A DNA stretch of 64,000 nucleotides from an uncultured delta proteobacterium (GTDB lineage Bacteria > Desulfobacterota > Binatia > Binatales > Binataceae): positions 672,001 through 736,000 of the forward strand of contig CAVRVY010000003.1 of NCBI GenBank assembly GCA_963724765.1. Reading direction: 5' to 3'. The notes under the pieces were generated by a model, which saw only the letters and a program-made list of their open reading frames with translations, did no database searches and was not told where the DNA came from. Of the stretch, positions 14,748 through 34,505 are shown piece by piece. The stretch's first letter is position 1, and every line of letters starts with the position of its first letter. Position numbers and translations under genes: made by a program.

Positions 14748-16028
14748 TCAAAGGTTCCAAGGCATGAGAGCCTGCTGATTTTTAATCAGTAGGTTGTCAG
14801 TTCGATTCTGACCATCGGCTTCAGAAAAATCGTGTAAATTAGCGGCTTTTTCAGAGGCGTCGCGGGACGGATCGACGTCCAATTCGGGATTGGTGCCAAA
14901 TTGGTGCCAAGTCGATCCGGTTGGCACTTCGGAGGCGTCGAGGCGATCCACGAATCCCGCGTCGGCTTGCGGGAGCCAGCGCGCATACCACTGAAGCGTC
15001 GTCGAGGGCTTCGCGTGGCCAAGCTGGGCCGCGACGTAGGTGATGGGCGCGCCCTTCGCCAAAAGGAGCGTCGCGAAGGTATGGCGTAGATCATAGAGGC
15101 GGTGTCCACTGACGCCGGCCTGCTTCATCGCGCGGGCGAACTGCTTGCGGACGCGCGAGTCGTCCAGGGGCTTGGCGTCGCGGTTGATGAACACCCACTC
15201 GGGCACGTCGCCCCATCCGCGGCGCAGGGTTTCGGCCTCGCGTAGCTTGTAGAGCGCCGTCAGGCTGTGGGCGAGATCGCGGGACATATCGACTGTGCGA
15301 ATGGAGTCGGTTTTCGTCGTACCCAATTGGCCGGCGGAGATAGCGCGCTCGACGAGGATCTTGCGCTGGGTGAAGTCGAGGTCGCTCCACTTGAGCGCGA
15401 GGGCTTCGCCGGGCCGCATGCCGGTACGGGCGAGGAGCAGGAAGATCGCGTCTGAGGAGCCGCTGAGGATCCGCGTCAGTTCCGCCTCGCTGAAGGGACG
15501 CACGGCTTTCGCGCGCTCGCTGGCGGACATCGCGCCGTTGCCCTTGTGGCCGCGCCGCCGTGAGGGTAGCGCGGCAGGGCTCGTCTTGAGGAGGCCGTCA
15601 TCGACCGCATCGGCGAGCATGACGGACAACGTGGCGCGGATGAGGCGGACGGTGCTTTTCGACAGCCCGGATTCGTGCTTTGCGGCGAGCAGGCCCTTGA
15701 CGTGGACGCGATGGAGATCGCGCAGCTTCGAGGACCGGAGCGCCGGGGCGATGTGCGTCGAGTAGAGATAGCGGTAGCTTTCGATGGTCCTGGGCTTGAT
15801 GCTGCCGGCGGCTTCGAGATGGGCGAACCAGCGCTCGGCGTAGACGGCGAGGGTGAGGTCGGGATCGACAACGGCGGGAGAGTTGTCGCGGGAGTCCACA
15901 TTGCGGTCGGCGAGGAGGTCGTCGGCCGCCTCGCGGGTCTTCGCGTGCAGGCGATGGCGCACACCCGCAGCGTCGCGGTAGTCGGCAGTCCACCCCTTGC
16001 GCAGCTTCCGCTTCCAAACTTTTGCCAC
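14748..16028 (-). CDS. Tyrosine recombinase/integrase
   Basis: TGMRPGEALALKW, TKT, YDLRHTFA, LGHA...TT..WY catalytic motifs; the C-terminus crosses the left att site. Confidence 0.95.
   Translation of the reverse strand: MAKVWKRKLRKGWTADYRDAAGVRHRLHAKTREAADDLLADRNVDSRDNSPAVVDPDLTLAVYAERWFAHLEAAGSIKPRTIESYRYLYSTHIAPALRSSKLRDLHRVHVKGLLAAKHESGLSKSTVRLIRATLSVMLADAVDDGLLKTSPAALPSRRRGHKGNGAMSASERAKAVRPFSEAELTRILSGSSDAIFLLLARTGMRPGEALALKWSDLDFTQRKILVERAISAGQLGTTKTDSIRTVDMSRDLAHSLTALYKLREAETLRRGWGDVPEWVFINRDAKPLDDSRVRKQFARAMKQAGVSGHRLYDLRHTFATLLLAKGAPITYVAAQLGHAKPSTTLQWYARWLPQADAGFVDRLDASEVPTGSTWHQFGTNPELDVDPSRDASEKAANLHDFSEADGQNRTDNLLIKNQQALMPWNL
14778..14823 (+). repeat. Left att site with a tRNA(Thr-like) 3' half
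   Basis: Core 14778-14794, then T-arm GTCAG-TTCGATT-CTGAC and acceptor strand CATCGGC-T-TCA; no D-arm or 5' half upstream. Confidence 0.8.
14890..14927. repeat. Putative integrase arm-type sites (left)
   Basis: TTGGTGCCAA twice with 11-bp spacing (14890, 14901) plus inverted TTGGCAC (14921). Confidence 0.6.
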
Positions 16029-16090
16029 GGCTGAATCCTCCCTCCCTCGCTCACTGTTCCACCGCAGCGCTAGCTCGGTAGCGCTGGGAC

Positions 16091-16300
16091 CTACAGCAGA
16101 TCGCGCACCGCAACGCCGAGCGCTTCGGCAAGCCGCCTCAACACGTCGAGCGAAGGATTCAGCCTTACGCCCGATTCAAGCTGCGCGAGATAGGGTTGCG
16201 TGATGCGTGCCTTGGCCGCCAGCTCGACTTGCGTCAAACCTTTACGCTCCCTCAATCGCTTGATCTTCCCGTCCATCTCCGGTTGTGCGGCGTTGATCAC
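16091..16300 (-). CDS. XRE-family HTH transcriptional regulator
   Basis: IKRLRERKGLTQVELAAKARITQPYLAQLESG..NPSL..L.RLA.ALGV; start is GTG at 16300 or ATG at 16276. Confidence 0.88.
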   Translation of the reverse strand: MINAAQPEMDGKIKRLRERKGLTQVELAAKARITQPYLAQLESGVRLNPSLDVLRRLAEALGVAVRDLL

Positions 16301-16306
16301 ATTTGG

Positions 16307-16349
16307 AATATAGCGCAAGGCTATACGATTGTCAATAGCCTTGCGCTAT
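16307..16349 (-). promoter_or_regulatory. Sigma70 promoter with two ATAGC-N5-GCTAT operators
   Basis: Minus-strand TTGACA (16335-16330), 17 bp, TATATT (16312-16307); perfect 15-bp inverted repeat 16310-16324 / 16335-16349. Confidence 0.8.
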
Positions 16350-16367
16350 TTTAAATTGTGGCTCGAC

Positions 16368-16781
16368 TCACCGCGAGGCGGTTTCGTGCTGGGCGATCCA
16401 CTCGGCGAGGGCCGATTCCGTGACGCGGCGGTACTTGCCTACCTTGACGGCGCGCAACGAGCCCGAGCGGATCAGCTCATAGACGTAGGACAAGGCGAAT
16501 CCGGTGCGCTGGGCGATATCGTGCGCTGCGAGGAGGCGCGGCGGTGAGGTCGGCGCGGGCGCGGCGGGAGTAGTAGCGGCTCGCCCGGTGATCGCGATTT
16601 GGATCGCGGACTGGATAACGGCACAGCGCCCGGCCAGCACCGCGAGCGCATCGGGCGACAACTGCGACAACGCCTCGGTGGGCGACGCCGCGGCTGCGAT
16701 CGCGTCGAGCGATAGCGTCGGCGAGTCGCGGGTGAGCGGCGCGTCGAGCGGAGCGCCGTTGTGATGTGGCGAGACTTGCAC
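16368..16781 (-). CDS. Excisionase-family (HTH_17) DNA-binding protein
   Basis: C-terminal LLAAHDIAQRTGFALSYVYELIRSGSLRAVKVGKYRRV. Confidence 0.78.
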   Translation of the reverse strand: MQVSPHHNGAPLDAPLTRDSPTLSLDAIAAAASPTEALSQLSPDALAVLAGRCAVIQSAIQIAITGRAATTPAAPAPTSPPRLLAAHDIAQRTGFALSYVYELIRSGSLRAVKVGKYRRVTESALAEWIAQHETASR

Positions 16782-16944
16782 CTAGAAGAACTGTATCGCG
16801 ACTTGTTGGCTGACAAACGGGGTGCAAAAAACGTGTCGCGATCCGGGAATCACGACAGCATCCGGCGCAAGTCGCTTCAGCGCCGGTGAAATTTTAGCGG
16901 GATCAGGGCGCCGAATTTTTCATGCGTCGGCGAGCCCAGCGGGT

Positions 16945-17436
16945 TTATTCGGCAGTTTCCGTAGTTTCGGGTATCTCGACGGGCGATTCGGGCGTCTCGA
17001 CGGGCTCGGCGTCGATCACTTCCTCGTCGTCTGTCGCGATCCCGTCGATATTGATCGCCGTCGCGTCGCCCTCGGTGCTCGCCGTGCCGTCCGCCTCGCC
17101 GTTCGTCTCGCCCCTCGCCGTGGATGGCCCGAATGCGGCTGAGAACCGCACGATCTCACCGCGCACCTCGCTGAGCGTGCCGTTGAGCGCCAGCGCGCGA
17201 TCCGGTGAGGGTGAGCCGAAAAGCCAGTCGCGCAACTCGCACGCCGCTTTGAGGCGCACCGATTCCTGCTTGCCGTTGCGCATGAGGGCGATGAGGCGCT
17301 CGGCGATCTCCTTGCCGTCCGAAGTTTCGGTCATCGCGTGCGCCAGGGCGGCTTTCGACGAGGGACGGCCGCCGGGATTGGGCGATGGGCCGCCCGGCTT
17401 CCAGCGGTGGGCCAGGATGTTTTCGACGTTGGGCAC
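16945..17436 (-). CDS. DUF5681-like protein, possible small terminase-like
   Basis: RWKPGGPSPNPGGRP motif, helical core (VRLKAACELRDW), acidic tail. Confidence 0.55.
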   Translation of the reverse strand: MPNVENILAHRWKPGGPSPNPGGRPSSKAALAHAMTETSDGKEIAERLIALMRNGKQESVRLKAACELRDWLFGSPSPDRALALNGTLSEVRGEIVRFSAAFGPSTARGETNGEADGTASTEGDATAINIDGIATDDEEVIDAEPVETPESPVEIPETTETAE

Positions 17437-17577
17437 TGCGCAGCTTGCCTCGCTGTTTACTCGGTGATCTCAACGGCGATCATAACATTGTTTTGCGGGC
17501 GCAAAAACCCATATAATCAACGCATGATGCGGATCGCGCAATTCGTCAAAGACACGATCACCGGTAGGCGGTTCCGC

Positions 17578-18393
17578 ATGACTACTACCCGCAACGGAGT
17601 ACCAAAGGACATGCACAATTCAGCCTTCAACGAGGCCGCCCGCGAACTCGAAGATCTCGTCAAGTCGCGCCGCTCCCAGGTCGGCACGATGGCCGACGCG
17701 AAAGACTACATGGAGTCGGACATCGACGATTTTGGTCGCACGCCGCAAGGCGTGCGAAGGCGCGACATGCGCGAGTCCAGCCGCGACTGGCGCGGAATTC
17801 AAGCGCTCGATGACGACGAACTATTCGCTTTGGGCGACGAGCTTGCCGAGGAGTCGCGCGCGATGTTGGTCAGTGGTAGACCCGCCAAGATTCGCTTTCC
17901 CGGCGCGAAGGGCGACAGCACGATTGAGCCATTCGATCGCGAGCGCTACGTTGCCGATGCGGATGACGATCTCGATAGCGACTTTCCCGAGGGCCGCAGT
18001 GCGGTGCGTCAGCGCTATCAACGGCTGCGCGGCACGCTGGGCGGTGATTCGATGAGCTGGAGGTCGCAGGCGTCGCGGCGTGGCGTCGGCGAAGATTCGT
18101 ATGCGAATAGTAAGTCCCTGGGTGGCCGCACCATCGGCCCGCTCGCATTGCTCAAGAGTTTCGGCGCGATCAAGTCGAAGCTCTCGCGTGCGATGATGGA
18201 CGAGTGCCTTGATCCCAACATCTTACTGAACTATGACGCGGCGGGCACGGAACCGCGCCTCGGCGTAGATCTGAGCGCTGCGATGAGAGCGTTGGCACAA
18301 GTGCCGCCCGCCGTGCGACAGGCTTATAACATCCCGACCATCGCCGAGAACCGCTTTGAGGAGATGGGCGCCATCAGACGCGGCCTCGCGTAA
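17578..18393 (+). CDS. Hypothetical charged protein (possible scaffold/head-associated)
   Basis: Long open frame, D/E/R-rich, TATAAT at 17513-17518 upstream; start uncertain (17524, 17578 or 17611). Confidence 0.6.
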   Translation: MTTTRNGVPKDMHNSAFNEAARELEDLVKSRRSQVGTMADAKDYMESDIDDFGRTPQGVRRRDMRESSRDWRGIQALDDDELFALGDELAEESRAMLVSGRPAKIRFPGAKGDSTIEPFDRERYVADADDDLDSDFPEGRSAVRQRYQRLRGTLGGDSMSWRSQASRRGVGEDSYANSKSLGGRTIGPLALLKSFGAIKSKLSRAMMDECLDPNILLNYDAAGTEPRLGVDLSAAMRALAQVPPAVRQAYNIPTIAENRFEEMGAIRRGLA

Positions 18394-18566
18394 ATCGTTC
18401 ATAGTGGAGGCGGCGCGATCGTTTTGCGTCACGATCGCAAGCTTCCCGGCCGGAGCCAGACGGAGATTTGTAGTGATTTCACCGTTTGAGCTTCGGCCTT
18501 TTTTTTGTGCTGCGTTAATAGCCAGTAGCGTCGAGTCGCTAGTAGCTAGTAGCCGAGAAACGCCGA

Positions 18567-18728
18567 ATGAACATCATCCGTAAAATGGACGAGATGCGGC
18601 GCCGCGAGAAGGCCGAAGCTAAGCGCAAAGTGCGTGAGATGCGGCGCAAGCTGAGGGCCGATGCGACACAGGCCGAAGCCGCGGCTACAGGGCTTTCGGA
18701 GCTAGCCGCCCTTCTCACTCCACGCTGA
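18567..18728 (+). CDS. Small basic helical protein (53 aa), hypothetical
   Basis: Manual translation MNIIRKMDEMRRREKAEAKRKVREMRRKLRADATQAEAAATGLSELAALLTPR. Confidence 0.35.
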   Translation: MNIIRKMDEMRRREKAEAKRKVREMRRKLRADATQAEAAATGLSELAALLTPR

Positions 18729-19056
18729 CGCGCATCCTGCCTTGTGCGGGGGCGCCCCTGACCGTCCTGTGGCTTTTCTCGTGTACCCGGATATCCACGT
18801 CACAACCCAGCAGGGTCAGAAGGCCCGTGAGCCGGTCCAGTGAGAATTTCTCCAGGTGGCCGCGCACAATCGCCGATACTTTGGGCTGGTCGATCCCGAG
18901 GATCTTCGCGGCCTGAGTTTGGGTCAGCCCGCGCCTGCCGATGATCTGTGCAAGCTCGATCGCGAGGTTCGCTTTTACGTCTAGTTCATCCGCGCCGGCG
19001 AGGCCGAGATCGCGGAAGACGTTGCCGCTGCCCACTTCATAATCAACAGATCTCAT
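18715..19056 (-). CDS. HigA-type XRE HTH antitoxin
   Basis: GSGNVFRDLG...GLTQTQAAKILGIDQPKVS...FSLDRL; directly downstream of the toxin gene. Confidence 0.88.
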   Translation of the reverse strand: MRSVDYEVGSGNVFRDLGLAGADELDVKANLAIELAQIIGRRGLTQTQAAKILGIDQPKVSAIVRGHLEKFSLDRLTGLLTLLGCDVDIRVHEKSHRTVRGAPAQGRMRVSVE

Positions 19057-19073
19057 AATACCTGACCCCTGCC

Positions 19074-19436
19074 CTAGACTCTTTGATTGTGGATTTCCCG
19101 CGCGCGCTTTAACCGCTCCTCGATCAGCGTGAGGTCGTGGCGCGGCGTGGCGTTCCCGTGCCTCGACTTCTTCTGGAAAGCGTGAAGTACGTAAACCGCC
19201 TCGGCAAATTTCACCGTATAGACCGCCCGATAGGTGTCGCCGTCGAAGTCCTCGACGATCTCTATGACGCTCGCTCCATGAAAGCCTTTCAGCGGCTTTG
19301 CGTCCTCGTGCTTTCCGCCGAACTGGGCGACCTTCAGCGCGAAGCCGATGTGCCTCTGGGCGGTTTCGGGGAAGCGCATGAGATCGTCCTTGCTGCTGCG
19401 AACCCATGTGATCGGCTTCGGCGGTTTGCCCTGCAT
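19074..19436 (-). CDS. RelE/ParE-superfamily (HigB/Gp49-like) toxin
   Basis: AKPLKGF.GA.V.EI..DFDGDTYRAVYTVKF..AVYVLHAFQKKS. Confidence 0.9.
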   Translation of the reverse strand: MQGKPPKPITWVRSSKDDLMRFPETAQRHIGFALKVAQFGGKHEDAKPLKGFHGASVIEIVEDFDGDTYRAVYTVKFAEAVYVLHAFQKKSRHGNATPRHDLTLIEERLKRAREIHNQRV

Positions 19437-19487
19437 CAGCCCCTCACCTCTCTCACCCTTTCGCCGTCACCGCCCTGCACGAAAGAG

Positions 19488-19516
19488 AATTTATGCCCCT
19501 TTTGGCATTATGTCAA
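19488..19516 (-). promoter_or_regulatory. TA operon promoter with palindromic operator
   Basis: Minus-strand TTGACA, 17 bp, TAAATT; ATGCC-N6-GGCAT palindrome (19493-19508) between the hexamers. Confidence 0.7.
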
Positions 19517-19853
19517 TAGAGGTATATAGGAGGCGCATCGAGCGCGGTGCTTTGGCAATGGGCTACGCTTCAGGCACAAAAGTGCCTTCCGCTTCGCCCA
19601 TTGCACTAGGGGTGACCCTAGGCGTTAGCGGGCAGTCGGCTATGCGGCATGGATCATCGGGTCGCATCGCGAGCACGATCGAGCACTTCGCGCAGCGCGG
19701 CGCATCGCGCATCGCGGCGGCGAGTTGTTGCAGTTCGCGGGCATGGGCGAGGCGCGCGTCGCGGTATCGCGCCCAGGGCGTCGCCGTGGGTGATGCGTTG
19801 TTGTTGCTCATGCGGCGATGAACCTCTCGCATCGTTAAGCGCAGGCTGCGATT

Positions 19854-22090: not shown

Positions 22091-22569
22091 CGGGTTTACT
22101 CCTTGTCGATTATCTCACAAGCCGCTGGTGGCGACCGTAAATCATCCTCGTCTAACACGAGAATGAAATCAGTCAAACCTTCCGCGTCGATTCAGATCGT
22201 CGCCCAGCAAGGCGCTGTCGTCGATGTGGTCCTGGCGATGGCGACGGTGATTGCGCGCGAGCTGGTGCGCGCGGTGATCGAGGCCGCACGAGGGGCAGCG
22301 CGATGAGATGAGGGGCGCATGTCCGCAGCGCCGACAGCGGTGCAGCGGGTTATTGGTTTTAAGCACCAACGTTTTGGCTGTCGGGCCACTGTGGAACTGC
22401 GCCGAGTCAGTCCACTGCGTCCATATTTATCCGTGCCCGGCGACCGCGGCGAACGCGGCGGCGAGGACGATGACGATGATCCCGAACTAGAACTAGATCG
22501 ATTACTCATTGCGATGATGATCCTCAGATATAAGTATACTTAGATTTACGGGTGTATTCGCAGGTTTAT

Positions 22570-22956
22570 TCAGTGATGCTTCGCATCACTGTAATAGAGG
22601 CCGCTCGGAGTTTTGCGCGTTTTCGGGGCTCGCTCGGAGTTTCGCGAGTTTTGAGGGGCGCATGGAGTTTTGCGGGCGCGTGCTTCGGCGTGCGCCCGGC
22701 GCCAGCACCCGACCGCCCAGGTTTGCGCCAAGTCGATCAGCGTGGCCAACGGGGTGGCGGCGCGCTGGCCACCACGAATCTCCAGGGAGAAAATTTCCCA
22801 TTCGTGCACACCGGCTTCGGCGGCGCGCCATGCGGCGCGGGCGTCGCGGAGGCCGATCAGCAAGTCGGCGATGTCGCGGTAATGGTCATCGTCAAAAATG
22901 AATTCAAATTTGGCCATAACGTTTAACCTCCGCCGCTCTGAGTAGGCGGTGCTCAC
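22570..22956 (-). CDS. Hypothetical protein
   Basis: Open frame with a 4-bp overlap to the upstream gene. Confidence 0.4.
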   Translation of the reverse strand: MSTAYSERRRLNVMAKFEFIFDDDHYRDIADLLIGLRDARAAWRAAEAGVHEWEIFSLEIRGGQRAATPLATLIDLAQTWAVGCWRRAHAEARARKTPCAPQNSRNSERAPKTRKTPSGLYYSDAKHH

Positions 22957-23315: not shown

Positions 23316-23606
23316 AAAAAATCTCCTCGGCGTGTGGAACCACGCACGCGATACGTGGAAACAATTGGCGCAGTTGCAATCGACCGTTCAGCGCGTCGCC
23401 GAACTCGAAGGGCGAGTGACCGAGCTGGAGACCCGTCTGAGGCGTTGCCCCGGCGTAGGCTGCCCAGCCTGCGGCGCGCTTGAGTGGCGCGCAGTGCGCG
23501 AAGAGTAGGGCGGGTTCTTGTACCTGGAATGACGAACGTCGGCGAGAGAGTCCGTCACATGAAATGCCGCGAATGCACCTACGAGGGTGAACTGCCCGTG
23601 CGCTAG
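23296..23606 (+). pseudogene. Coiled-coil/zinc-finger small protein, disrupted
   Basis: QRVAELEGRVTELE coiled coil and CPACG, then stop codons before a second CREC pair. Confidence 0.4.
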
Positions 23607-23657: not shown

Positions 23658-24005
23658 CCGCCAGCATTTGACCCACTCCAACCCTCTCTCTCCCAACTAC
23701 TTCATACACACGATTCTGGCGGTCCTTCTCTCCCAATAGCCGCCAGAATTGATCGCGACTATCTCCTTGTGTGCGTATGGGCGCCGGAATCGCGATTCTG
23801 GCGGTCCTTGTAGCGCAACAAACGTCAAAATCGAGTGATTGATGGCGTCGAATAGGCCGCCAGAATCGCCCTCTCGCCAAGTCCTTCTCGTACAGGCGTT
23901 GTTGATGCGTCGTTTCCTGCGGCTTAACGGCCCCAATAGCCGCCAGAATCGGCATTGTCAGGCGCCTTCTCCGCGTTGGGTTTTCCGCATGTGAAATGCT
24001 GGCGG
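23658..24005. repeat. Iteron-like array, putative replication origin
   Basis: CCGCCAG(A/C)AT at 23658, 23740, 23857, 23940 (+) and 23713, 23795, 23996 (-), plus a variant at 23781; lies just downstream of the AAA ATPase gene. Confidence 0.7.
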
Positions 24006-25181: not shown

Positions 25182-25420
25182 TCGGTCACCTCGCGCTTAG
25201 GCGCGCCGGCCAGCGAATCGGCTACGGCGGGACTTTCGAGGATCATCGCCGCGAATTTTCTGAGGCGTCTCGCAAGATCGGCAGGATCGCGCGTCTCGAA
25301 CTCGAAGCTCGCACCGATGAGGCTAGGGTCCGGGTGAAAGTGGATCGCGAAAAAGTGCTCGCCGGGCTTGGGCCTCAAGCATGCGACTAGGAAACGGTGC
25401 TTCGTCGGCCGGTCGCTCAT
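25178..25420 (-). CDS. Hypothetical protein
   Basis: ATGA-type overlaps with both neighbours. Confidence 0.55.
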   Translation of the reverse strand: MSDRPTKHRFLVACLRPKPGEHFFAIHFHPDPSLIGASFEFETRDPADLARRLRKFAAMILESPAVADSLAGAPKREVTE

Positions 25421-25662
25421 CGCTCTGCTCCGGCGCGCACTTCCATCACCCAGTCCGAGGTCAAACGCGTAAATTCCTCGACGCTATAAATCGCGTTCGT
25501 GCGTGTATCGACGATGCACTCCGGGTGCCTCACGTAGACGAAGCATGTATTCATTCGATGCAAGAGGGATTCGAGAGTGGGTAAGCCAGGTAGGGCATCT
25601 CTGTATAGATCGCTAAAGTCAGGACGCGCGATTTCTCGGGGCGCTAGTGATAGTCGTGACAT
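25417..25662 (-). CDS. Hypothetical protein
   Basis: TGATG overlap upstream and ATGA overlap downstream. Confidence 0.55.
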   Translation of the reverse strand: MSRLSLAPREIARPDFSDLYRDALPGLPTLESLLHRMNTCFVYVRHPECIVDTRTNAIYSVEEFTRLTSDWVMEVRAGAER

Positions 25663-26192
25663 CAGAACGCCCTGATGCGCGCCGGGCGCTGCTGACGCAC
25701 GCAAGTGTCGCATTCACACTCGCGCCACATGCCCCGGCGTGCATGCTCGGCGTCCGCCGCGAATTGAGGATTGCGATGGCAGTAGTCGAGGACCGCTTTC
25801 GCGACTTCCAGCGATGGCCGCAACTCGTAGGACTGAAACGGCTTGTGATAGGGGTGGCCGCAGTGCGCGATCCGCGGGCCGAAGAGGCTACCGCCGTGAT
25901 GGTGAATTTTTCGGCAGTAGGGACAGCGCAGGATCAACTCGTGATCAGACCACGCGATGACCGGCGTCCGAAAGGGTTTAGGCCACGCGATCACGATCGG
26001 AAGTCGTTCATCGTCCGCGTCGCTGGAATCGAGATTGGCAGCGTCGGGCCGGCCGTTCGGTGCGGTCGCCTCAGCCTCAGCGGGGGGTATTTGTCCGTTT
26101 CGTGCTTGTGTTAGAGTCTGCATTACATCTCCGTGGTGGTGATGGCGATTGCCTCGATTTCGTTGGAGCGGGTCGAGGCTTTCGCGTTTCAA
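25662..26192 (-). CDS. Hypothetical protein with a Cys/His zinc motif
   Basis: CPYCRKIHHHG...AHC and a terminal CECDTC. Confidence 0.55.
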   Translation of the reverse strand: MKRESLDPLQRNRGNRHHHHGDVMQTLTQARNGQIPPAEAEATAPNGRPDAANLDSSDADDERLPIVIAWPKPFRTPVIAWSDHELILRCPYCRKIHHHGGSLFGPRIAHCGHPYHKPFQSYELRPSLEVAKAVLDYCHRNPQFAADAEHARRGMWRECECDTCVRQQRPARIRAF

Positions 26193-26194
26193 AG

Positions 26195-26395
26195 CTAGGC
26201 CGCGTGCTGCGGCTCTTGTTGGGGATCGATCGTGTGCGCGAGCTGGAACCTCTCCAGCGCAGCGCGACGGTAGACAACCCGCTTCCCAAGCTTCACGTAA
26301 CTCGGACCGCGGCCTTCCATACGCCAGACCGCCAACGTGCCGGGGCGCAGACCCAGGAAAACCGCAGCTTGTTTCGTATCTAGGATCTCTCCCAT
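26195..26395 (-). CDS. AlpA/excisionase-type HTH regulator
   Basis: LDTKQAAVFLGL..GTL..WR..GRGPSYVKLGKRVVY; AAGGAG RBS; first gene of the replication operon. Confidence 0.85.
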   Translation of the reverse strand: MGEILDTKQAAVFLGLRPGTLAVWRMEGRGPSYVKLGKRVVYRRAALERFQLAHTIDPQQEPQHAA

Positions 26396-26477
26396 CTGAT
26401 GCTCCTTCTCGATGTTGCTGATCGCGCGTGTACTGCCCATTTCACTACCTCTCATGCTACATTGTAGTTGGTAGACA

Positions 26478-27431
26478 ATGATGACTAACCATCCCGAATC
26501 GACCCGGACTACCAGCTTGAAGGAATTAAAAAACGACGAAGCTGGTAGTTCTCCGAGCCGGCAGCCGGGCCGAAGGACGCCACGCCCCGCGATAGTTTCA
26601 TGGCCGACAGTCTGCTGCGCGCTGGAACGCTACGATCCGGATGCGTTTGAACGGCTGGCTTCGGCGACGGGCGCATCTTTGTCGCCGCTCAATCGGATCG
26701 TCTACGTTACCCTTCACTGGCCCGACGGGTTCGGCGGCCCCTTTAGCCAGTCGCTTATCCGCAAGCTCGCCCGCGAGAGAAACGAACGCCTAACCGGCGA
26801 CGCGCTTACTACGCTTACGGGAGCACAGCGCCGCAACCGGCTGGCAGCGCTCAAGGCTTTCATCGAAGCCGCAAACTGGATCGGGCGCGATGGGCTACCG
26901 TCGTTTGAGGGCGATTATCTTAAAGTCAAAAGTGAACTGAGCGAGCGGCGAATCCGCTGGCCCGCTTCCGGTGCCGAGGAGTCTGAACGCATGCACTTTT
27001 ACGAGAGCTTCGCGCGAAGCGCCGGATTCGCGGATATGCTCAAAGCTTCCAAGGCGCGGGCGGAAAAGCCCGACGCCGAACCGCTGCGTCCGGCCCTGGC
27101 GCATTTCATCGAAAGCGACAGGCCCGACGCCTGGCGGCTCTATAGCTTACTGCGCAGGATTGGCCTGACTATCCACACAGCCGCTCACGAACATCGCGTC
27201 GCACAAGACGAGGACGACGAAGCGCCGTGCGGGTGGCCGGGAGACACGTGGATCGAGCGAGCTTATGCGACACTGCGAATGATCCTTGAGGACTTGGACG
27301 ATGGTGGCCTCCAGCGCATGCGAGTGTGCCGGAATCCACGTTGCCGTCGCTACTTTTATGCGCTAAAGAAGCACCAGCTGTCATGCTCTACTAAATGCAC
27401 CAACCGCCGTAATCACAAGAGATCGTCATAG
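26478..27431 (+). CDS. CGNR-type zinc-finger domain protein
   Basis: C-terminal RVCRNPRCRRYFY......SCSTKCTNR; divergent from the AlpA-like gene; start uncertain. Confidence 0.7.
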   Translation: MMTNHPESTRTTSLKELKNDEAGSSPSRQPGRRTPRPAIVSWPTVCCALERYDPDAFERLASATGASLSPLNRIVYVTLHWPDGFGGPFSQSLIRKLARERNERLTGDALTTLTGAQRRNRLAALKAFIEAANWIGRDGLPSFEGDYLKVKSELSERRIRWPASGAEESERMHFYESFARSAGFADMLKASKARAEKPDAEPLRPALAHFIESDRPDAWRLYSLLRRIGLTIHTAAHEHRVAQDEDDEAPCGWPGDTWIERAYATLRMILEDLDDGGLQRMRVCRNPRCRRYFYALKKHQLSCSTKCTNRRNHKRSS

Positions 27432-27477
27432 CGAGCGGCGCGCTGCGCGATGGGAAAAACCCCAGAACGCCAGGCCG

Positions 27478-29321
27478 GTGACAGCGGCCGAGGGGATAAG
27501 AATGGTGCTGCGCAGGAGATGGAATGCACTTGTTGCGGCGGTTCTCCTCTTCGAGATAATAGCGACTGCCGTCAGTGCTGAGGCCGCGTGTTGGGCTTCA
27601 AATCCGACAGGTGAGAGAACCTGCCGTAACTTCTACAGTGAGCACGGCCCCACCGCTGTTAGGTTATGCGAGGACCAGCCGGACGACTGCCTAAAGCTCG
27701 GCTACACCTTAGCTGCGCGGCCGACACGCCACACAACGGCACACGCGCACCATAGGCGCGTTCTTGACAGCGACAAGCCTGCAAAGGTGGCACCTGAGCC
27801 CGGCGTGGAAGCCAGTTCTCGGGCCACCGCAGAACCACAAGAGACGCCTTCAGGTTTCGGGTTCTTTCTCTTCCTCGGGGTCGCCACCATCGTCGCGCTT
27901 CCGATCAGTGTCTTCGTTTGGTGGGGGAATAGGTCAAGGGAGATCGCAGTTAACCTGATCAGCCATAACGCTGCCAAGCTGGCAGTGGCGCGCAACGAGG
28001 AACTGTATGGCCTCTGGTCCGACACGATCCCTGACGAGGACGAACTTGAGAAGCGGCGTGACGCTTATCCCGGGCAAGAGCCGAGCCTGAGCCGTTCGTT
28101 CCAGATCGACTTTACTGAGCTGGCTGAACTCCCAGAGAGCATCAAGCTCAACATGGATTACTCCAGGCCGGCGGTTGACGGACCAACTGGGCAGGAGAGC
28201 TGGAGCGAGCGGAAGATGGGCTTCCTGCTCTACGAATTGTCGCCGTCGTTACCCGGTCCAAAATGGCTCTCTCTCAAAATTGATGGTTTGTCAGGAGTGA
28301 TCGACCGCGAGGCCGACGCCTACCTCGCCCGCAAACATTCCGAATTCCATCCAGTCGTGTTTCTGAATGCGATCCATGCCGCGACGAGCTTTCAACTGGC
28401 CTGCGAGATGAGCAGGTGGTTCATCCGACGGCACGCGCGCAACCTCGCCATCCGCCGTTCACAGCTCATCAGTAAAGACATTTATGGTGTCGTCGATAGT
28501 ACAAAGTGGCAACGCGAAAAAGCGTACTTCTTCTCCAAAGTCAATGCTGCCCGACTTAGGCTTCGTGGATAAGCCAAACGATGAGCCGAGCTGGGAATCC
28601 AAGGTTGCGCTGGAGGAAGCCTGGGCGGACGACAACATGCCGATCGATTCGTGGGTTGACCTTGAGTACAAGGATTCCGATCGGTTGTCGAATCTGCTTA
28701 ATGAAGTTTTGCGACAGACGAGCGATAAGCAAGTGCATTACGGTTGGAGCGATTTATTCCCGTTTCAGTGTCGCCGCCTACTGATTACGGAGATGGTGTT
28801 GCCTCGGTTAAGCGATCTCGTATCGGATTGGATTGAAGCGGCAGTTGCTGCTTTGGCCCTACCTGTTGACGGCGAAGAACCCTCGATTGAAGGGGCTTCC
28901 GGGTCTGAGTATGAAGAGCACTGCGCCGAGATCCTACGCACTGCCGGATGGGAAACGAGAAGTACGCCCAAGTCCGGCGATCAGGGAGTGGACATAATCG
29001 CTGAACGCGACGGCATCCGCATCGCGATCCAATGCAAGAACTACAAGCAGCCCGTGGGCAACAAGGCCGTGCAGGAGGTCTTGGCGGGCAAAGTCCTACG
29101 AGCACACGGATCTGGCCGTTGTAGTCAGCCCTGCGCCTTACACTCCGGCAGCGAGAGAGCTGGCATCAGCAACCGGCGTGCTGCTGCTGCACCACCAGGA
29201 ATTATCCGGTCTCGCCACACGCATCCAGAACGACCCGCCAGCAACAACGGAAAGTAGGGATTCGGACGTGCGGCGCGGCAGGATAGTGCGGATCAGTCAG
29301 TTCAAAAAGAATCGATCCTAA
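27478..29321 (+). pseudogene. Membrane-anchored Mrr-like restriction endonuclease, frameshifted near 28545 and 29093
   Basis: Signal-like N-terminus and a TM helix; EYEE.CAEIL...GW......SGDQGVDIIAE...IAIQCK.Y..PVGNKAVQEV, then AVVVS...YT.AA.ELA..TGVLLL in the next frame. Confidence 0.75.
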
Positions 29322-29355
29322 CTGATCAGTAAAGCGCCGGAAGGAGAAAGTGTCG

Positions 29356-29514
29356 ATGGATTCAGCCGTAATCGTACTCGTTATCGCGATTGTCGTCTTT
29401 CTCATATTCCGCGAAGTGTGGTGCTGGTATTGGAAAATGAACGAAGCGATCAAATTGCTCCAAAGCATCGATGAGTCTTTGAAGCAACTTCCGGCCGTCG
29501 CACGAAACAGGTGA
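29356..29514 (+). CDS. Small single-TM protein (52 aa)
   Basis: AAGGAG upstream; MDSAVIVLVIAIVVFLIFREVWCWYWKMNEAIKLLQSIDESLKQLPAVARNR. Confidence 0.65.
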   Translation: MDSAVIVLVIAIVVFLIFREVWCWYWKMNEAIKLLQSIDESLKQLPAVARNR

Positions 29515-29586
29515 AGCGCGGCTTGAGGGATGTTCTGCAAAATCTGGCGCTGAATACCGTGTCACTGGCTCGACATGAACGAGTGA

Positions 29587-30385
29587 GTGATGGCCAAGAG
29601 AGGCAAAACCAAAATGACGGCCCGGTTGATTGCGACCATTCAGACGAAGGGGATCCCAGCGTTCGCGGTTCTTTTTGCGTTGGCTCTACTGTCTGGGTGC
29701 GAGAGCCGTCACGCTCAGCCGGCGCCGGCTTCCCTGCCATCGACCGAAGCTCCACACGCGAAGGTTTCGCACGAACCCGTTGCGGCGGTGGCGCCCAAAC
29801 CGGAAACGCCGATGCCCGGAGTCTGAAGTGCAGTTCTGCCAGGCGGTTGCCGCCGCAAGTAGGGCTTTCGCGGCAGCGTCATCCGAATCCAACGGCTTCA
29901 AGGCGGAGGCCATGAGAGAGGCGGCCATGCGCGAGTTCGTAGGAGATACAACGCCGCTAAGAAGCAGGGCTTACAACTGGATCGGCAAGGTCGACGTTTT
30001 GAATTTTGCTAAGTCGGAGTTTTTTGGAGACGACGCGGCGCAGCTTACGGTGCGCATTCCTTGTCCAACCGAAGCCGCTGTTGAAGTGGGTTCGCCGCCA
30101 CCCGTCGAAGAAGGCGAAGGCAGCCTCGCGTCCGTGATCAGATCGGTCCAACCTCGCCTGTATGCCAAGCTCGCCGACTTCGACCCCGGCGATCTCGTGT
30201 ACTTTGCTGGGACGTTTAACGGGATCACCGAAATAGCAGACTATTCAAACATGGACCTAGAGAGTCTGCCGCGCATGATCGACACCGGCGTGTTCTGGCT
30301 CGACTTCACAGACATGTCCAAGTCTCCGCTTCCCACGAAGCGGCGCATCGGGCGTAAAGAAACGCGGACGCGGCGCACCGAATAG
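29587..30385 (+). pseudogene. Lipoprotein, frameshifted near 29815
   Basis: Lipobox LLSGC and a Pro/Ala linker; the globular part is in another frame. Confidence 0.55.
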
Positions 30386-30426
30386 AGGAAATGTAAACTA
30401 ACGGGACCGCCGTCGGGACAATTCGG

Positions 30427-30558
30427 ATGTTCTGCAAAAAATGTGGGGTTGAGAATCGACAGGCAGCGAAGTTCTGCGATCACTGCGGCGCGCCGATGGG
30501 CTCCGCGCACATCTTGCAATACGCCGCGTGGGCGACGTTCGCTATTCCGCATCGTTGA
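30427..30558 (+). pseudogene. Zinc-ribbon domain stub
   Basis: MFCKKCGVEN...AKFCDHCGA, then an early stop. Confidence 0.6.
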
Positions 30559-30625
30559 CAGTACATGGTAATCGACCTCCTTCATTGTTGGTATAGAGTT
30601 CGGGCGCGCGTCGTAATCGTGCGGC

Positions 30626-31006
30626 TCAGTTTCCCGCCTCATCCGCGATTCGTATGAGCACCGCGCAAGCCTCGCCCTCGGGCATCGAGTTAGGATCTTG
30701 CGTCGCCCTTAGTTGCAAGCCCAAGTCCTCGCCGTCAACGCGAAACTCGAAGGTAAGCGGCCCGCGCTGATGAGCGCGTGAGGGATTGACGAGATCGGCC
30801 TCGATAAAGATTGGCGCAGCGGGATCGATTTCCTCTCCGACGGTGGTCGCTAGCAGCACATCGGAGCGGGAGCGGCGTATGGATGCGGCACCGGCATCGA
30901 CGTAGCCCAGCACCTCGGGCGAGATGATGAACGTCAGCCTTGTGCCCGCGGGAACGCCGATGAAGCCATGCCAGTCTACGGCGACCAGCTTGTCATCTCT
31001 GTTCAT
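30626..31006 (-). CDS. Hypothetical protein
   Basis: ATGA overlap with the upstream ORF; globular composition. Confidence 0.5.
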   Translation of the reverse strand: MNRDDKLVAVDWHGFIGVPAGTRLTFIISPEVLGYVDAGAASIRRSRSDVLLATTVGEEIDPAAPIFIEADLVNPSRAHQRGPLTFEFRVDGEDLGLQLRATQDPNSMPEGEACAVLIRIADEAGN

Positions 31007-31245
31007 CGCGTCGAGCCGTCGTCGCGCCAGTGGGCCTCGACGAAACCCTTGAGCCTTGCGAGCGTCGCCGGCTTGAGGGATTGCGTCCGCTCGATGACCT
31101 CCAGGGCGTCAAGCAACCACTCCTCTGAGACGCTCGCGCGCAGCGACTTCTTGTCGTAGCAGCTAGAGCACAAGCAGCGCGGCGCCGCGCGGAACGCCAT
31201 TGCCTTAGTGGCGAGCTTGCCGCATTCACACTTAGTAGCATCCAT
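31003..31245 (-). CDS. Small Cys-rich hypothetical protein
   Basis: GGAG RBS; CECGK...LCSSC. Confidence 0.5.
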   Translation of the reverse strand: MDATKCECGKLATKAMAFRAAPRCLCSSCYDKKSLRASVSEEWLLDALEVIERTQSLKPATLARLKGFVEAHWRDDGSTR

Positions 31246-31336
31246 AAAAACTCCCATCGTGTACCGAGCGCGCCGGGCGCGCGTTATCGTTTCGTTGCAG
31301 TCGGTTCCGTCGCGAGCATACCCGCCGCGCGCTCTA

Positions 31337-32418
31337 TTAAGTTCTGTATAATATAGTGACAAATGCTCTGGTCGGTGCTAATATGTGGCGCATGGGTAAT
31401 CCAGCGGGTGTGCGGCGGGATTTCGCTGCGTTGGAAGAGCGGCGGATGGAGGCGGCGCGATTACTGCGACAAGGGCTTAGCCAGTCCGAGGTCGCGCGAG
31501 AGTTGGGCGTACACCGCCAGTCGGTTAGCCGCTGGGCGCGGGAACTTGGAGCATCGGGAGTGCGCGGCCTGCGCAAGGCCGGACGCACCGGGCGTCCAGC
31601 GAAGCTCATCCCGGCCCAGTTGCGCGACCTCGAGCGCGCACTCAAGCGCGGACCCGAGGCGTTCGGATTTGCCAGCGGACTGTGGACCGCGAGTCGGGTG
31701 CGCGATCTCATCGAGTACCGGACCGGGGTGCGATACCACGAGGACCACGTCTGGCGCATCCTGCGCAAGCTTAACTGGACCTGCCAGCGTCCCACTGGAA
31801 AAGCGCTCGAGCGCGACGAGCAGGCAATCCGGCAGTGGAAGAAGTACCGCTGGCCGCAGATTAAAAAAAAGCGCTCTGCGAGCGGCGCACCATCGTGTTC
31901 ATCGACGAAAGCGGACTGAGCGAACGGCCGCATCGGGTGCGGACCTGGGCGCCGCGCGGGCAGACTCCGGTGCTGCAGTATCACTTCAACTGGAAGGTGC
32001 TGTCGGCCACAGCCGGCATCACCTGGTGGAACTTTTACTTCCGGCTCTATCCCACAACCATCCGCGCCCCTCAGGTGGTGGACTTCCTCGGCCACCTGTT
32101 GCGTCATCTGCCGGGGAAGCTGTTGGTGGTGTGGGACGGACTGCCGGCGCATCGGGCGCGCTTGGTAACCGAATTTATCCGCGCGCAGCGTGGCCGGCTG
32201 GCGCTCGAGTGGCTGCCGGGTTACGCGCCGGAACTCAACCCGGTGGAGTACATCTGGGGTTACTGGAAACACCACGAACTGCCCAACTTCTGTCCCCGCG
32301 ATTTCACCCAGCTCAGCCATCAGGCCCGCCGCGCGCTGCGCCGCATGCGTCGGCGCCCACGCTTGGTGAGATCCTTCTGGCATCAAGCAAAACTGTCACT
32401 ATAAAATGCAGGACTTAA
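31337..32418 (+). mobile_element. IS630-family insertion sequence, 1082 bp
   Basis: Imperfect 25-bp IRs TTAAGTTCTGTATAATATAGTGACA / TGTCACTATAAAATGCAGGACTTAA; TA duplication at 31335-31336 and 32419-32420. Confidence 0.92.
31392..32404 (+). CDS. IS630 transposase, two ORFs joined by a probable programmed -1 frameshift
   Basis: HTH ORF followed by FIDESG, VWDGL and YAPELNPVE; A8 slippery run at 31863-31870. Confidence 0.88.
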
Positions 32419-32450
32419 TAGGCCGCCGATGGGACCATCGTCATGCGAGA

Positions 32451-33008
32451 CTAGTTCGGGCACTTTTCAAGGACCTCGCGATGGATCCGCACGCGCTCCT
32501 CGTAAACCTGAAACTCCGCGCGCTTGCGCATCCAGCGCTTGCGCGCCCACGGATATCGGCGCTCCACAAGCGCCGCGCTTATCATTAGGTCACCGGCCAG
32601 CGCTCTGCGCACTTGCCGCCACGTCGTAAAAGCGGCCTCGATGGCGATATTGTCGATGGTGTCCGGTAAATCCCTGTGTGGATTGATCCAGTGGGATGGC
32701 GGCGCTAGGTCCGGGGCGCCGAGCGGCGCACCCAGCGCTTTGAGGCGGGTGAGGACCGCGAGGAAGCGGCTTCCATGGCCCCCACCAGTTCCGATGTGGC
32801 ACATCTCGTGTAGCAGCGTCGCTAATACCAACTCGGACGATAGGCCACGCCGGAGGTAAATCGCGCGCGGGGTGCATAGCCCGCTTTGCGGGGCCACTTT
32901 CCAGTCTGCCCGCCGCACGCGCCGCTTTCTCAGATTGCCGCTGAAATACTTTTGGTTCAGTTCATCAAATAGACGATCGAGATTTACTATGGTGCCCATT
33001 GCGACCAC
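32451..33008 (-). CDS. SprT-like zinc metalloprotease
   Basis: LFDELNQKYFSG.L, TLLHEMCH, HG..F. Confidence 0.78.
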   Translation of the reverse strand: MVAMGTIVNLDRLFDELNQKYFSGNLRKRRVRRADWKVAPQSGLCTPRAIYLRRGLSSELVLATLLHEMCHIGTGGGHGSRFLAVLTRLKALGAPLGAPDLAPPSHWINPHRDLPDTIDNIAIEAAFTTWRQVRRALAGDLMISAALVERRYPWARKRWMRKRAEFQVYEERVRIHREVLEKCPN

Positions 33009-33015
33009 TACCTCA

Positions 33016-33387
33016 TCAGCACGCGGGCGCGTCGGTCGCGTCGCCGTGCGCGTTGAGTTGTTGGATCAGATCTCTCAACAGCAACAACGCCCGCGCCACG
33101 GTGATCGCGCCCAGCTCGACTATTAGCTTGTCCACCTCAGCCGGGGCCGTGACGCCGATTGCGATCCGGCGCGCCGCAACCTGTTCCTGCCCAGATACGG
33201 TTTCGCCCTCGTGGAATGGCTGTAGCGCCGCGCTCACGTCGGCGATTCCGCGATCGGCGAACAGATTCCGCGCCTCGTCGATATTCTCGTTGAATGAGCG
33301 GATCGCGTAGGGGAGCACCGCGCGCAGCAACCCTTCGGCGCTTGTGCACCAGCACGTCTCAGTCTCGGTGCGCGTGTCGATTTCCAT
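33016..33387 (-). CDS. Hypothetical protein
   Basis: GGAG RBS within a tandem 15-bp repeat; open frame of 123 aa. Confidence 0.5.
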   Translation of the reverse strand: MEIDTRTETETCWCTSAEGLLRAVLPYAIRSFNENIDEARNLFADRGIADVSAALQPFHEGETVSGQEQVAARRIAIGVTAPAEVDKLIVELGAITVARALLLLRDLIQQLNAHGDATDAPAC

Positions 33388-33691
33388 GCTTCACTCCCTC
33401 CGTCTCGATATTCCCTCCGTCTCGATTAGTCGCGACCGAACCTACCGCCCCTTTTTTCGACCGGGGGTCCCATCCCGCTCAGATCCGAGTTCGGGCAAAA
33501 TTCAGCGTGCGCGTAGACAATAAGCGTGCCGCTAATTAGAGCCCGTGTAACACCCTCCTCGACGACGCCCTCCATCGCGACACCCTCCGCCTCGGCAATG
33601 CCATCCACGATGCACAGGGCGGCTCAGGAACGACGCTGGCTCGCGTGGCCGGTTCGGTTAGCGTGCGAGCCGGCAAGCCACGCGCTGACGC

Positions 33692-34147
33692 CTACACCGA
33701 ATGCAACGGTACGCTGATCCTGTTTGCCATCGTCCAGTCTTCGAGAAATCGAGTGCACATCGCGACACGGCCCAACCCGGCGCCCAAATCCAGGCCACAC
33801 ATCTCGTGGTCCGCGCGCCCGATCACGTACCCAGCCTGCGCGAGTAGGATCAACTCCTCGATGCCGGCGGAGCGCATCCGGTCTACAGCGGCCATCGTGG
33901 CATCGTCGAGCTGGCCGTTTACCGGCGTGTGATATGCACATACCTGCATCAGCCTAACGGCGGTCATAGCGGGCAACGCGACGAAGCATTGCAGGACTAT
34001 GGCGTCGAGCGGCTCGGGCAATTCGCCGATACGGAATCGCGACCAATAGCCTTCGAGCGTCGCGTCATCGAGCGGCGCGTCGCCGTGGCCGCCGTCGCTG
34101 AGCGCGCGCACCAGCTTGAATGCCTCGGACTTGTTACTCGTTCGCAT
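33692..34147 (-). CDS. GH108/peptidoglycan-binding-like protein, degenerate
   Basis: YW....GELP..L...V.......A.R.MQ......V.G....TMAA pattern resembles GH108 lysozymes; the catalytic EGGY motif is missing. Confidence 0.4.
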   Translation of the reverse strand: MRTSNKSEAFKLVRALSDGGHGDAPLDDATLEGYWSRFRIGELPEPLDAIVLQCFVALPAMTAVRLMQVCAYHTPVNGQLDDATMAAVDRMRSAGIEELILLAQAGYVIGRADHEMCGLDLGAGLGRVAMCTRFLEDWTMANRISVPLHSV

Positions 34148-34223
34148 CGTCGTTACTCCCCTAGAGCCCGGTTAAAAGCGGGCGAAATTGCCCGATAATT
34201 CCATTGTTGCGATCACGTTTTTG

Positions 34224-34371
34224 TGGCACCGCGTTGGCACCGTCGCCTGTAAGCCGTTGAAATAATTAGCTTTTCCGTCGAGAGGCTGACTAATAGTCAG
34301 CGGGTAGATCCCTATCGACACGCCAGAAATCGACGCGGAATCGGCGCCACATCGGTGCCAAGCCGGTGCCA
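34224..34371. repeat. Putative integrase arm-type sites (right)
   Basis: TGGCACC at 34224 and 34235; CGG(C/T)GCCA at 34342, 34353 and 34364; 11-bp periodicity and the same motif as at the left end. Confidence 0.65.
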
Positions 34372-34488
34372 AAACCAGCCGAACGCAGCCGCACCACGAT
34401 CCCGCCATCGAGTTGATAGCCATCGGCTTCACGCGGATTTCTTTGACGGTGTTGCGGGATGGATCGGCGTGTTACGATCCGACGGGCT

Positions 34489-34505
34489 ATTTTTAATCAG
34501 CAGGT
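34489..34505 (+). repeat. Right att core
   Basis: ATTTTTAATCAGCAGGT, 16/17 identical to 14778-14794. Confidence 0.8.

Follow-up and report, generated by a model that had tools for sequence, protein, structure and literature searches.

A tRNA-associated island of the Binataceae with phage-satellite-like gene content and a putative tape-measure gene

An island bordered by a tRNA-like gene, and its two relatives

The stretch of DNA analysed in the current work (termed the window) consists of 64,000 nucleotides of contig CAVRVY010000003.1 (positions 672,001 to 736,000 of the forward strand; GenBank assembly GCA_963724765.1), which belongs to a member of the Binataceae, an uncultured bacterial lineage of soil and peat. 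The window contains an island of approximately 20 kb, which extends from a tRNA-like gene (14737-14818) to a repeat that matches part of this gene at 16 of 17 nucleotides (34489-34505), and which encodes a tyrosine integrase, a set of regulators, a replication module, a large tape-measure-like protein and a candidate small terminase. Judging from its sequence, we give slightly better than even chances to the interpretation that this island is a member of a small family of 16-20 kb tRNA-integrating, phage-satellite-like elements in the Binataceae.

A first-pass annotation of the window had described an att-bounded unit containing an integrase gene, and such an island is indeed present (integrase match to PF00589, 4.7e-30), though its att repeat, being 17 nt in length with one mismatch, is weaker than had been stated. 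The two copies of this repeat are its only matches in the window, and a pair of this kind was obtained in none of 100 shuffled sequences. The predicted succession of an AlpA-like regulator gene, small open reading frames (ORFs), an AAA ATPase gene and iterons was also recovered, based on an AAA_25 match (6.9e-14) and on three 42-nt palindromic units. With regard to the divergent AlpA/CGNR pair that had been proposed, the AlpA-like regulator was retrieved as a helix-turn-helix (HTH) protein of the HTH_17 family (8e-9), and its partner resembles CGNR proteins by its C..C...CS..CTNR tail and by a paralog that matches zf-CGNR at 1.1e-4, a value below the cut-off. No capsid, portal, large terminase (TerL), sheath or tube family was detected among those ORFs inside or beside the island that were selected for scanning (39 in Pfam and 35 in PHROGs, out of 186 listed ORFs), in agreement with the absence of capsid, portal, TerL and sheath genes noted in the annotation.

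A profile of the protein specified by the largest backbone gene of the island (of approximately 740 codons, here termed the large gene) matched two of the 165 genomes of this bacterial family, these being the genome from which the window is derived, in which three loci were found, and one genome of another genus, in which the large gene is again located close to an integrase gene. Two of the three loci in the former genome represent sister islands: island A (contig 1, 94190-110573; 16.4 kb) lies between perfect 51-bp repeats that derive from the 3' part of tRNA-Leu(tag), and island B (975727-994727; 19.0 kb) between 58-bp repeats with an identity of 96.6% that derive from the 3' part of tRNA-Leu(caa), with the integrase gene adjoining the tRNA gene in both cases. 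About 12 backbone genes are arranged in identical order across the three islands, namely an end gene, a gene for a protein of 123-131 aa, the AlpA-like gene and the AAA_25 ATPase gene, followed by small ORFs, the large gene, an ORF of 70-103 aa, a gene for a highly charged protein on the opposite strand, and the DUF5681, HTH_17 and integrase genes. Considering that this order is the same despite a mutual identity of 33-36% between the three large proteins, the layout appears to be old and maintained. When 16 backbone proteins were compared by BLASTP to all ORFs of at least 50 aa in the genome, their relatives were confined to the three islands, with the exception of one weak match to a 73-aa ORF located over the tRNA end of island A.

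The annotation had considered that homologous loci might prove to be full prophages. The sister islands, at 16.4 and 19.0 kb, are not, since no capsid, portal, TerL or head-tail connector/adaptor gene was found in scans of either of them, and the four Terminase_6N matches of the genome all lie outside the three islands. These sister islands are moreover cleaner than the window copy and retain an intact large gene; both this and their lack of genes for capsid, portal and TerL speak against a remnant formed by deletion. Pfam Phage_AlpA itself gave a weak match to the AlpA-like protein of island B only (0.0021, below the cut-off). A second tyrosine recombinase gene (452 aa; locus L008, 5964-7322) is present inside island A at about 1.7 kb from the left att site, and this island may be a composite of two elements.

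The large protein, its hub-like neighbour and the DUF5681 protein

The large gene of the window consists of five segments, separated by four frame changes near positions 21940, 21681, 21493 and 21176, all within about the first 300 codons. The translated segments align end to end with intact homologues of 739-748 aa, so that the gene of approximately 740 codons described in the annotation is real; its likeness to tape measures is based on remote homology, and not on a direct match to a tape-measure model. Intact proteins of this kind range from 724 to 770 aa, the paralogs in the sister islands being 724 and 770 aa in length. The family is small, with 12 members, including that of the window, in a collection of 5.8 billion proteins, while a profile search of 1.84 billion representatives returned 34 matches. 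Related loci were encountered once among genome contigs and once among metagenome contigs, both from the same Binataceae lineage.

Eleven of the 34 profile matches were scanned against Pfam and PHROGs, seven of these being remote relatives. A C-terminal SLT (transglycosylase) domain was detected in five of the seven, and five of the seven also matched phrog_13572 (“tail protein with lysin activity”) across the region that they have in common with the large protein. Alignment of the island family with the SLT-bearing proteins by hhalign gave a probability of 99.2% and an E value of 1.2e-19 over 390 columns, a score which indicates the extent of the similarity, as relatedness as such was expected from the selection of the SLT group among hits to the first group. 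The shared region of one remote relative (P0033) matches a gene of the SPO1-like Exiguobacterium phage vB_EalM-132 (E 3e-5), which follows the sheath, tube and chaperone genes and thus occupies the tape-measure position of a myophage. The best-scoring ESM Atlas clusters for the island A protein are viral (scores 0.94-0.95), and 16 of its 30 neighbours fall in clusters of the PF10145 tape-measure family. Glycine/alanine-rich hydrophobic segments are visible in the alignment of the large proteins. Together, these sequence comparisons point to the large protein being a remote homologue of phage tail tape-measure/tail-lysin proteins with a role in the virion. With phage tape measures that carry lytic domains (PHROGs 13572 and 1047, and the vB_EalM-132 gene product) it has in common a helical core (about 150-390 residues), hydrophobic segments and an overall length in the range of 700-900 aa; it differs from these in that the island family lacks the SLT domain, a direct tape-measure match, and sheath, tube and chaperone genes upstream.

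The genes upstream of the large gene specify a zinc-ribbon protein and small proteins without an assigned role rather than tube, sheath or chaperone proteins. The possibility that the small ORFs preceding the large gene represent chaperones of the G/GT type was considered and rejected, since one of them is the zinc-ribbon protein and since a 272-aa gene separates the pair in island B. Gene calls of the large-protein family are repeatedly split into pieces that cover only the N-terminal or only the C-terminal part (P0008-P0012 and P0016-P0021), with the break at about residues 240-320; in a second Binataceae locus (L002, 2373-4236) the frame changes at residues 297-319, and the last frame change of the window gene is located at 304/305. 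Across unrelated members, gene calls and frame changes are concentrated near residues 260-320. Such recurrent breaks may reflect a recurrent error, a two-gene form or two products, or recoding.

In island B the large gene is followed by a gene for a 562-aa protein, the first 160 residues of which match phrog_1015 (“tail protein with lysin activity”; 1.6e-14), and which resembles a Yersinia myophage gene situated between the gene in tape-measure position and a baseplate assembly gene. A homologue of this hub-like protein with 40% identity is encoded in L002, where its gene precedes the large gene by two positions, while the hub-like gene is missing from the window island.

The DUF5681-like gene reported in the annotation was recovered with qualification, in that the window protein scores below the Pfam cut-off (20.3 against 27.5 bits) and its paralogs in the sister islands score above it (29.8 and 31.3 bits); the window protein is a clear paralog of the latter. 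The two strongest DUF5681 genes of the genome (86.7 and 80.8 bits) are positioned immediately 5' of Terminase_6N genes (517 and 540 aa). These DUF5681-TerL pairs are located on contig 3 (122544-124639 and 142722-144741; loci L110 and L111), about 20 kb apart and on opposite strands, and the prophage-like regions that contain them could represent helper phages. A search of the whole genome with the HK97 capsid family PF05065 gave no match.

A similar gene arrangement is observed in viruses. In IMG/VR, 138 stretches encode relatives of DUF5681, of which the best 80 were kept and inspected for a downstream ORF of at least 300 aa starting between 100 nt before and 600 nt after the DUF5681 stop codon. 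Such an ORF is present in 58 of these 80 best loci; 39 of the 58 belong to large-terminase families (37 above the cut-off), two to methylases, and 17 had no match, although the viral loci include near-duplicates, so that 39 of 80 overstates the independent support. In Acetobacter phage phiAX1 a DUF5681 match is found in a small gene ahead of a 448-aa gene and the portal gene, and in the literature DUF5681 is represented by a phage proteome paper. From its gene position elsewhere, DUF5681 is likely to function as a small terminase (TerS). The DUF5681 gene stands alone in the islands with no TerL gene beside it, and stand-alone TerS genes are typical of satellites that redirect packaging, such as those of the Staphylococcus aureus pathogenicity island (SaPI) type.

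Comparison of the DUF5681 model to 48,161 PDB chains by VIA-align produced a best Z score of 5.4, corresponding to generic helical hairpins, and a complex prediction of the window DUF5681 protein with the TerL protein of a resident prophage, run without controls, scored 0.00 and gave no verdict. Profile and sequence searches of the PDB yielded nothing meaningful for the large protein, the DUF5681 protein, a 120-aa ORF of the window (19074-19436), or the 272-aa and hub-like ORFs of island B.

Between the large gene and the DUF5681 gene lies the gene for the highly charged protein, which had been presented as a charged unknown gene and as a “scaffold-like” one. The gene exists and is conserved, with 53% and 46% identity to paralogs of 283 and 278 aa that occupy the same place, likewise on the opposite strand, in the sister islands; it lies on the plus strand (Table 1), opposite to its neighbours, and nothing supports the scaffold label. 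The charged protein had no Pfam, PHROG or usable ESM Atlas match, and no IMG/VR loci were found for the 283-aa paralog.

Borders, remaining genes and integrity of the window copy

The features of the island and their coordinates are compiled in Table 1.

Table 1 Features of the window island (positions refer to the window; identities are to paralogs in sister islands A and B)
Feature	Position	Strand	Evidence and remarks
tRNA-like sequence	14737-14818	+	Anticodon loop TTT, oversized D-loop; Rfam RF00005, 35.4 bits (cut-off 29)
Tyrosine integrase	14748-16028	-	PF00589 (Phage_integrase) 4.7e-30; phrog_1 2.5e-63; ORF end overlaps tRNA-like sequence
Left att core	14778-14794		Within tRNA-like sequence
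XRE-type HTH regulator	16091-16318	-	HTH_3 4.3e-17; paralog in island A
HTH_17 protein, excisionase-like (Xis-like)	16368-16781	-	PF12728 6.6e-9; phrog_66 “excisionase and transcriptional regulator” 2.2e-7
DUF5681-like protein, candidate small terminase	16945-17436	-	PF18932 20.3 bits, below cut-off of 27.5
Highly charged conserved protein	17338-18393	+	Likely start near 17527; phase of third-codon-position GC content fits
HTH_37 (HigA-like) DNA-binding domain, C-terminal part	18715-19407	-	PF13744 7.6e-25; absent from islands A and B
Conserved 89-aa ORF directly downstream of large gene	19563-19832	-	77% and 62% identity to paralogs
Tape-measure-like large gene, about 740 codons	19854-22090	-	Five segments, four frame changes
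Small zinc-ribbon protein (CxxC...CxxC), just upstream of large gene	22169-22509	-	Alignment; tblastn
Two conserved small ORFs, 128 and 120 aa	22570-23315	-	No PHROG match for island A homologues
Three direct repeats (19-27 nt, 29-nt period)	22599-22674		3' end of 128-aa ORF, upstream of zinc-ribbon and large genes
Three copies of 42-nt palindromic unit	23711-23952		Downstream of ATPase gene; 100%, 76% and 69% identity; candidate iterons/origin
AAA_25 (RepA/DnaB-like) ATPase, 255 aa	24414-25181	-	PF13481 6.9e-14; phrog_906 6.2e-9, partial
Three small ORFs between AlpA-like and ATPase genes	25178-26192	-	No Pfam or PHROG family match
AlpA-like HTH_17 regulator heading long minus-strand gene row	26195-26455	-	PF12728 8e-9; 87% identity to island A copy
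Divergent 317-aa protein, CGNR-like zinc-finger tail	26478-27431	+	No Pfam match; ends in C..C...CS..CTNR motif
Variable cargo region	27478-31362		364-aa ORF, Mrr-type nuclease domain (28484-29257; Mrr_cat 7.1e-16), 251-aa ORF, small ORFs; functions of 364- and 251-aa ORFs unassigned
Insertion sequence, 1088 bp	31333-32420		Terminal inverted repeats; four other copies in genome
SprT-like metalloprotease-fold protein, then conserved 123-aa ORF	32451-33387	-	PF10263 7.2e-6; 65% identity to island B 131-aa ORF
Backbone end gene	33692-34147	-	C-terminal 151 aa only; 351 aa in island A, 278 aa in island B
Right att core	34489-34505	+	16 of 17 nt identical to left att core

The tRNA-like sequence at the left border was not called by ARAGORN. 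On the right, the distance between the att core and the conserved end gene is as in island A. The 3' half of a tRNA-Thr(CGT) gene is located 64 bases to the right of the right att core (34569-34632) and is 95% identical to an intact gene 46 kb upstream (contig 3, 660755-660830); since this half gene lies beyond the att core, the right border is uncertain by about 130 bases. Further copies were observed near position 650018 of contig 1 and near position 181830 of contig 3, and these may be att scars of other elements. None of 16 other genomes of the genus was found to possess a clean empty site. The left flank is conserved in three genomes of the same genus only to about position 14083, and in these the flank containing LigD is located elsewhere. 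The segment from an HlyD-like efflux gene to the tRNA-like sequence (14084-14740) is not common to these three genomes, and part of it (14559-14706) shows 79% identity to a stretch of contig 4 near 61727. A full-length LigD gene, specifying phosphoesterase, ligase and primase-polymerase domains, is found directly to the right of the island (35241-37925).

Apart from a 119-aa ORF (31003-31362), the cargo region of the window island is not common to islands A and B. The other copies of the adjoining insertion sequence are located on contig 1, three of them being 100% and one 99.7% identical, and its ORFs match no Pfam family at an E value of 0.01. The 120-aa ORF mentioned above is situated upstream of the HigA-like HTH_37 domain, and island B contains a HigB-type toxin gene (L009, 9608-10009); the HTH_37 gene with its neighbouring ORF, as well as the HigB gene of island B, may represent toxin-antitoxin cargo. 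The direct repeats within the 128-aa ORF could serve as a regulatory or packaging site. With regard to the replication module, the ATPase of the window (255 aa) is shorter than those of the sister islands (419 and 404 aa) and shows no likeness to them in tblastn.

Concerning the integrity of the window copy, short-read contigs derived from two public runs contain an extra G after position 21938, exactly at the first frame change of the large gene, thereby bridging one of the four sites, and one short-read contig contains an extra G after position 22408, in the zinc-ribbon ORF. At least part of the damage to the window copy is therefore likely to be due to assembly error or strain variation, and the window island is probably a family member that is partly decayed or partly mis-assembled.

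Interpretation, alternative explanations and comparison with known satellites

The observations made in the annotation are thus largely right, and its satellite interpretation is partly supported and plausible; the scaffold label should be dropped. A more specific proposal, which we put forward tentatively and at somewhat less than even chances, is that the Binataceae elements constitute a previously undescribed satellite family whose own contribution to the virion is limited to a small terminase and a tape measure, with a baseplate hub in some members, and which relies on a helper for capsid, TerL, tube and fibres, thereby hijacking packaging and tail length without remodelling of the capsid. 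Under the broader satellite interpretation, a helper phage, for example a resident prophage with a DUF5681 gene before its TerL gene, would trigger excision and replication of the element; the TerS-like protein of the element would then steer the TerL protein of the helper to the element DNA, and the tape-measure-like protein would take the place of that of the helper inside the tail. Some relatives would in addition contribute a baseplate-hub-like protein, and the product would consist of chimeric particles, as in the Vibrio cholerae element PLE11. The hijacking of a helper is what we infer from the gene content of the islands.

Several observations weigh against the satellite interpretation. 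No member of the large-protein family matches Pfam (0 families at an E value of up to 10 for five members), its best match to a tape-measure family in PHROGs is to phrog_5755 at an E value of 0.11, and its link to tape measures, as drawn from sequence comparison, is transitive. None of the IMG/VR contigs encodes a relative of the large protein, a tblastn search of this protein against 50,697 phage records gave no match, and no tail assembly chaperone (TAC) was recognised among the small upstream ORFs. The AlphaFold2 model of the 724-aa island A protein, obtained from a 9-row alignment, is all-helical with a predicted local distance difference test (pLDDT) value of 43.2, while that of the DUF5681 protein, obtained from a 31-row alignment, consists of four helices with a pLDDT of 58.6 and found no match in BFVD by Foldseek at an E value of 0.001 or better. 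Both are low-confidence models, and non-virion folds of these two proteins, which the annotation had named as a second ground for refutation, were not obtained. The DUF5681 proteins of the islands have no BLAST similarity to those of the prophages. Finally, in view of the four frame changes, the reduced length of the ATPase, the truncation of the end gene, the insertion sequence and the weak att repeat, the window copy may be dead or inactive, for which reason islands A and B are the better objects of study.

The variable cargo, which includes an Mrr-type nuclease (window island) and a HigB toxin (island B), would also be compatible with an integrative, self-replicating and possibly defensive island that is not packaged by a phage, and in which the tape-measure-like and DUF5681 proteins would be either decoys that disrupt the tail assembly or packaging of an infecting phage, or products of domesticated phage genes that serve the cell. 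The remoteness of the tape-measure link and the fact that no chaperone, tube or capsid-redirecting gene was found are in line with this explanation, and there are published descriptions of interference with tail assembly as a defence carried by phage-inducible chromosomal islands (PICIs; PMC11364771) and of the PLE11 protein Rta, which blocks phage tail assembly (PMC12987554). Nevertheless, we consider such an island rather unlikely, as the combination of an integrase, an Xis-like protein, a replication module and a TerS-like gene standing alone is typical of elements that are exported in virions. In addition, the tape-measure-like and hub-like genes are paired in two relatives, which suggests that tails are built rather than blocked.

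The four frame changes, the insertion sequence, the truncated end gene and an att repeat of 17 nt as opposed to 51 and 58 bp, in combination with the presence of phage-type genes, might alternatively indicate that the island is what is left of a decayed full prophage after the loss of the genes for head, tail and lysis. This is improbable, however, given that three long-diverged copies agree in their reduced set of genes and in the order of these, with near-perfect att repeats and intact genes in two of the three, and that the relative from another genus also has its large gene near an integrase gene. Furthermore, no full prophage was encountered among the relatives found, and short-read contigs contradict at least one of the frameshifts. 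It is similarly improbable that the islands are satellites whose large protein serves in ejection or as an internal-virion (pilot) protein and not as a length-setting tape measure: the SLT domain of the remote relatives does match phrog_342 (“internal virion protein with endolysin domain”) and the family has glycine/alanine-rich hydrophobic stretches, yet the homologous region itself matches tail-lysin PHROGs and the myophage gene in tape-measure position, and those Atlas neighbours that have a named family are tape measures.

We know of no cultured members of the host phylum and of no phages that infect it, and to our knowledge the manipulation of tail assembly by a satellite has been shown only recently, in one Vibrio system. 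If the satellite proposal is correct, the Binataceae islands would add an unrelated second family that possesses a tape measure and a TerS of its own, which would suggest that the strategy is widespread; they would also provide a marker set for satellites that current tools exclude by forbidding tail genes, and the DUF5681 family would gain a likely role as small terminase.

The annotation had regarded this gene combination as unlike any known layout, a claim that is not supported, given that tape measures have been reported for PLE11, for some capsid-forming PICIs (cf-PICIs) and for EPIPs. The island, judged by its gene content, is probably a new family or variant of phage-parasitising satellite and not a new category. 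A literature search for satellites in Binatota returned papers whose titles and abstract openings concern unrelated ecology.

The PICI model of SatelliteFinder, as described in PMC10085698, comprises five core components (an integrase, a regulation module with an alpA, merR or stl homologue, a primase-replicase, capsid morphogenesis and a small terminase), treats tail and holin genes as forbidden components, and is accompanied by the statement that many PICIs are without a capsid morphogenesis gene. The window island resembles PICIs in its integrase, its AlpA-type regulator (HTH_17, 8e-9), its replication module followed by repeats, its stand-alone TerS-like gene and its lack of capsid and lysis genes. 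It differs from them in that 10 kb separate the AlpA-like gene from the integrase gene, which closes the gene row at its other end, and in that a likely tail gene is present, while no capsid-morphogenesis gene was found among the scanned ORFs. Its replication module, consisting of the 255-aa AAA_25 ATPase with a partial match to phrog_906 and of the iterons, contains no recognised primase domain. Because of this ATPase without primase, the missing capsid-morphogenesis gene and the likely tail gene, the island is not a standard PICI. The exclusion of tail genes would concern the island only if the large gene does belong to this class, and as no standard tail profile matches it directly, the PICI software itself might not reject the island.

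Some cf-PICIs are reported to possess a tape measure and a small terminase, as the islands appear to, and putative tmp genes are indicated in PLE-like elements and in some cf-PICIs (PMC12987554, legend to Extended Data Fig. 10). The cf-PICIs, as described there, differ in having their own capsid, portal, head-tail connector or adaptor and TerL genes, none of which was found in the island, and in the absence of a capsid or portal gene the island is not a cf-PICI. The EPIPs of Mycolicibacterium, for which a tape measure protein (TMP) and TerS are reported (PMC12822802), are alike in these two components and differ in their serine integrase, head-to-tail adaptor/stopper and scaffold. No sequence similarity to PLE genes was seen in the searches that were run, in which PLE proteins were not used as queries.

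The PLEs (PICI-like elements) of Vibrio cholerae use a large serine recombinase, whereas the present island carries a tyrosine recombinase gene at a tRNA-like gene. It further differs from PLE11 in having a TerS-like gene and no recognised TAC, and in residing in another host phylum. The precedent of a PLE with a tape measure, which had been invoked for this locus, is borne out by PLE11, which is described as building chimeric tails in which its own TMP, TAC and hub replace those of the helper (PMC12987554). The two elements are alike in their similar size, their integrated state, their own replication module, their own (here putative) tape measure and their lack of a capsid gene, as well as in the hub of some island relatives and the proposed reliance on a helper for the remainder of the virion, and PLE11 is therefore the closest functional parallel to the Binataceae islands.

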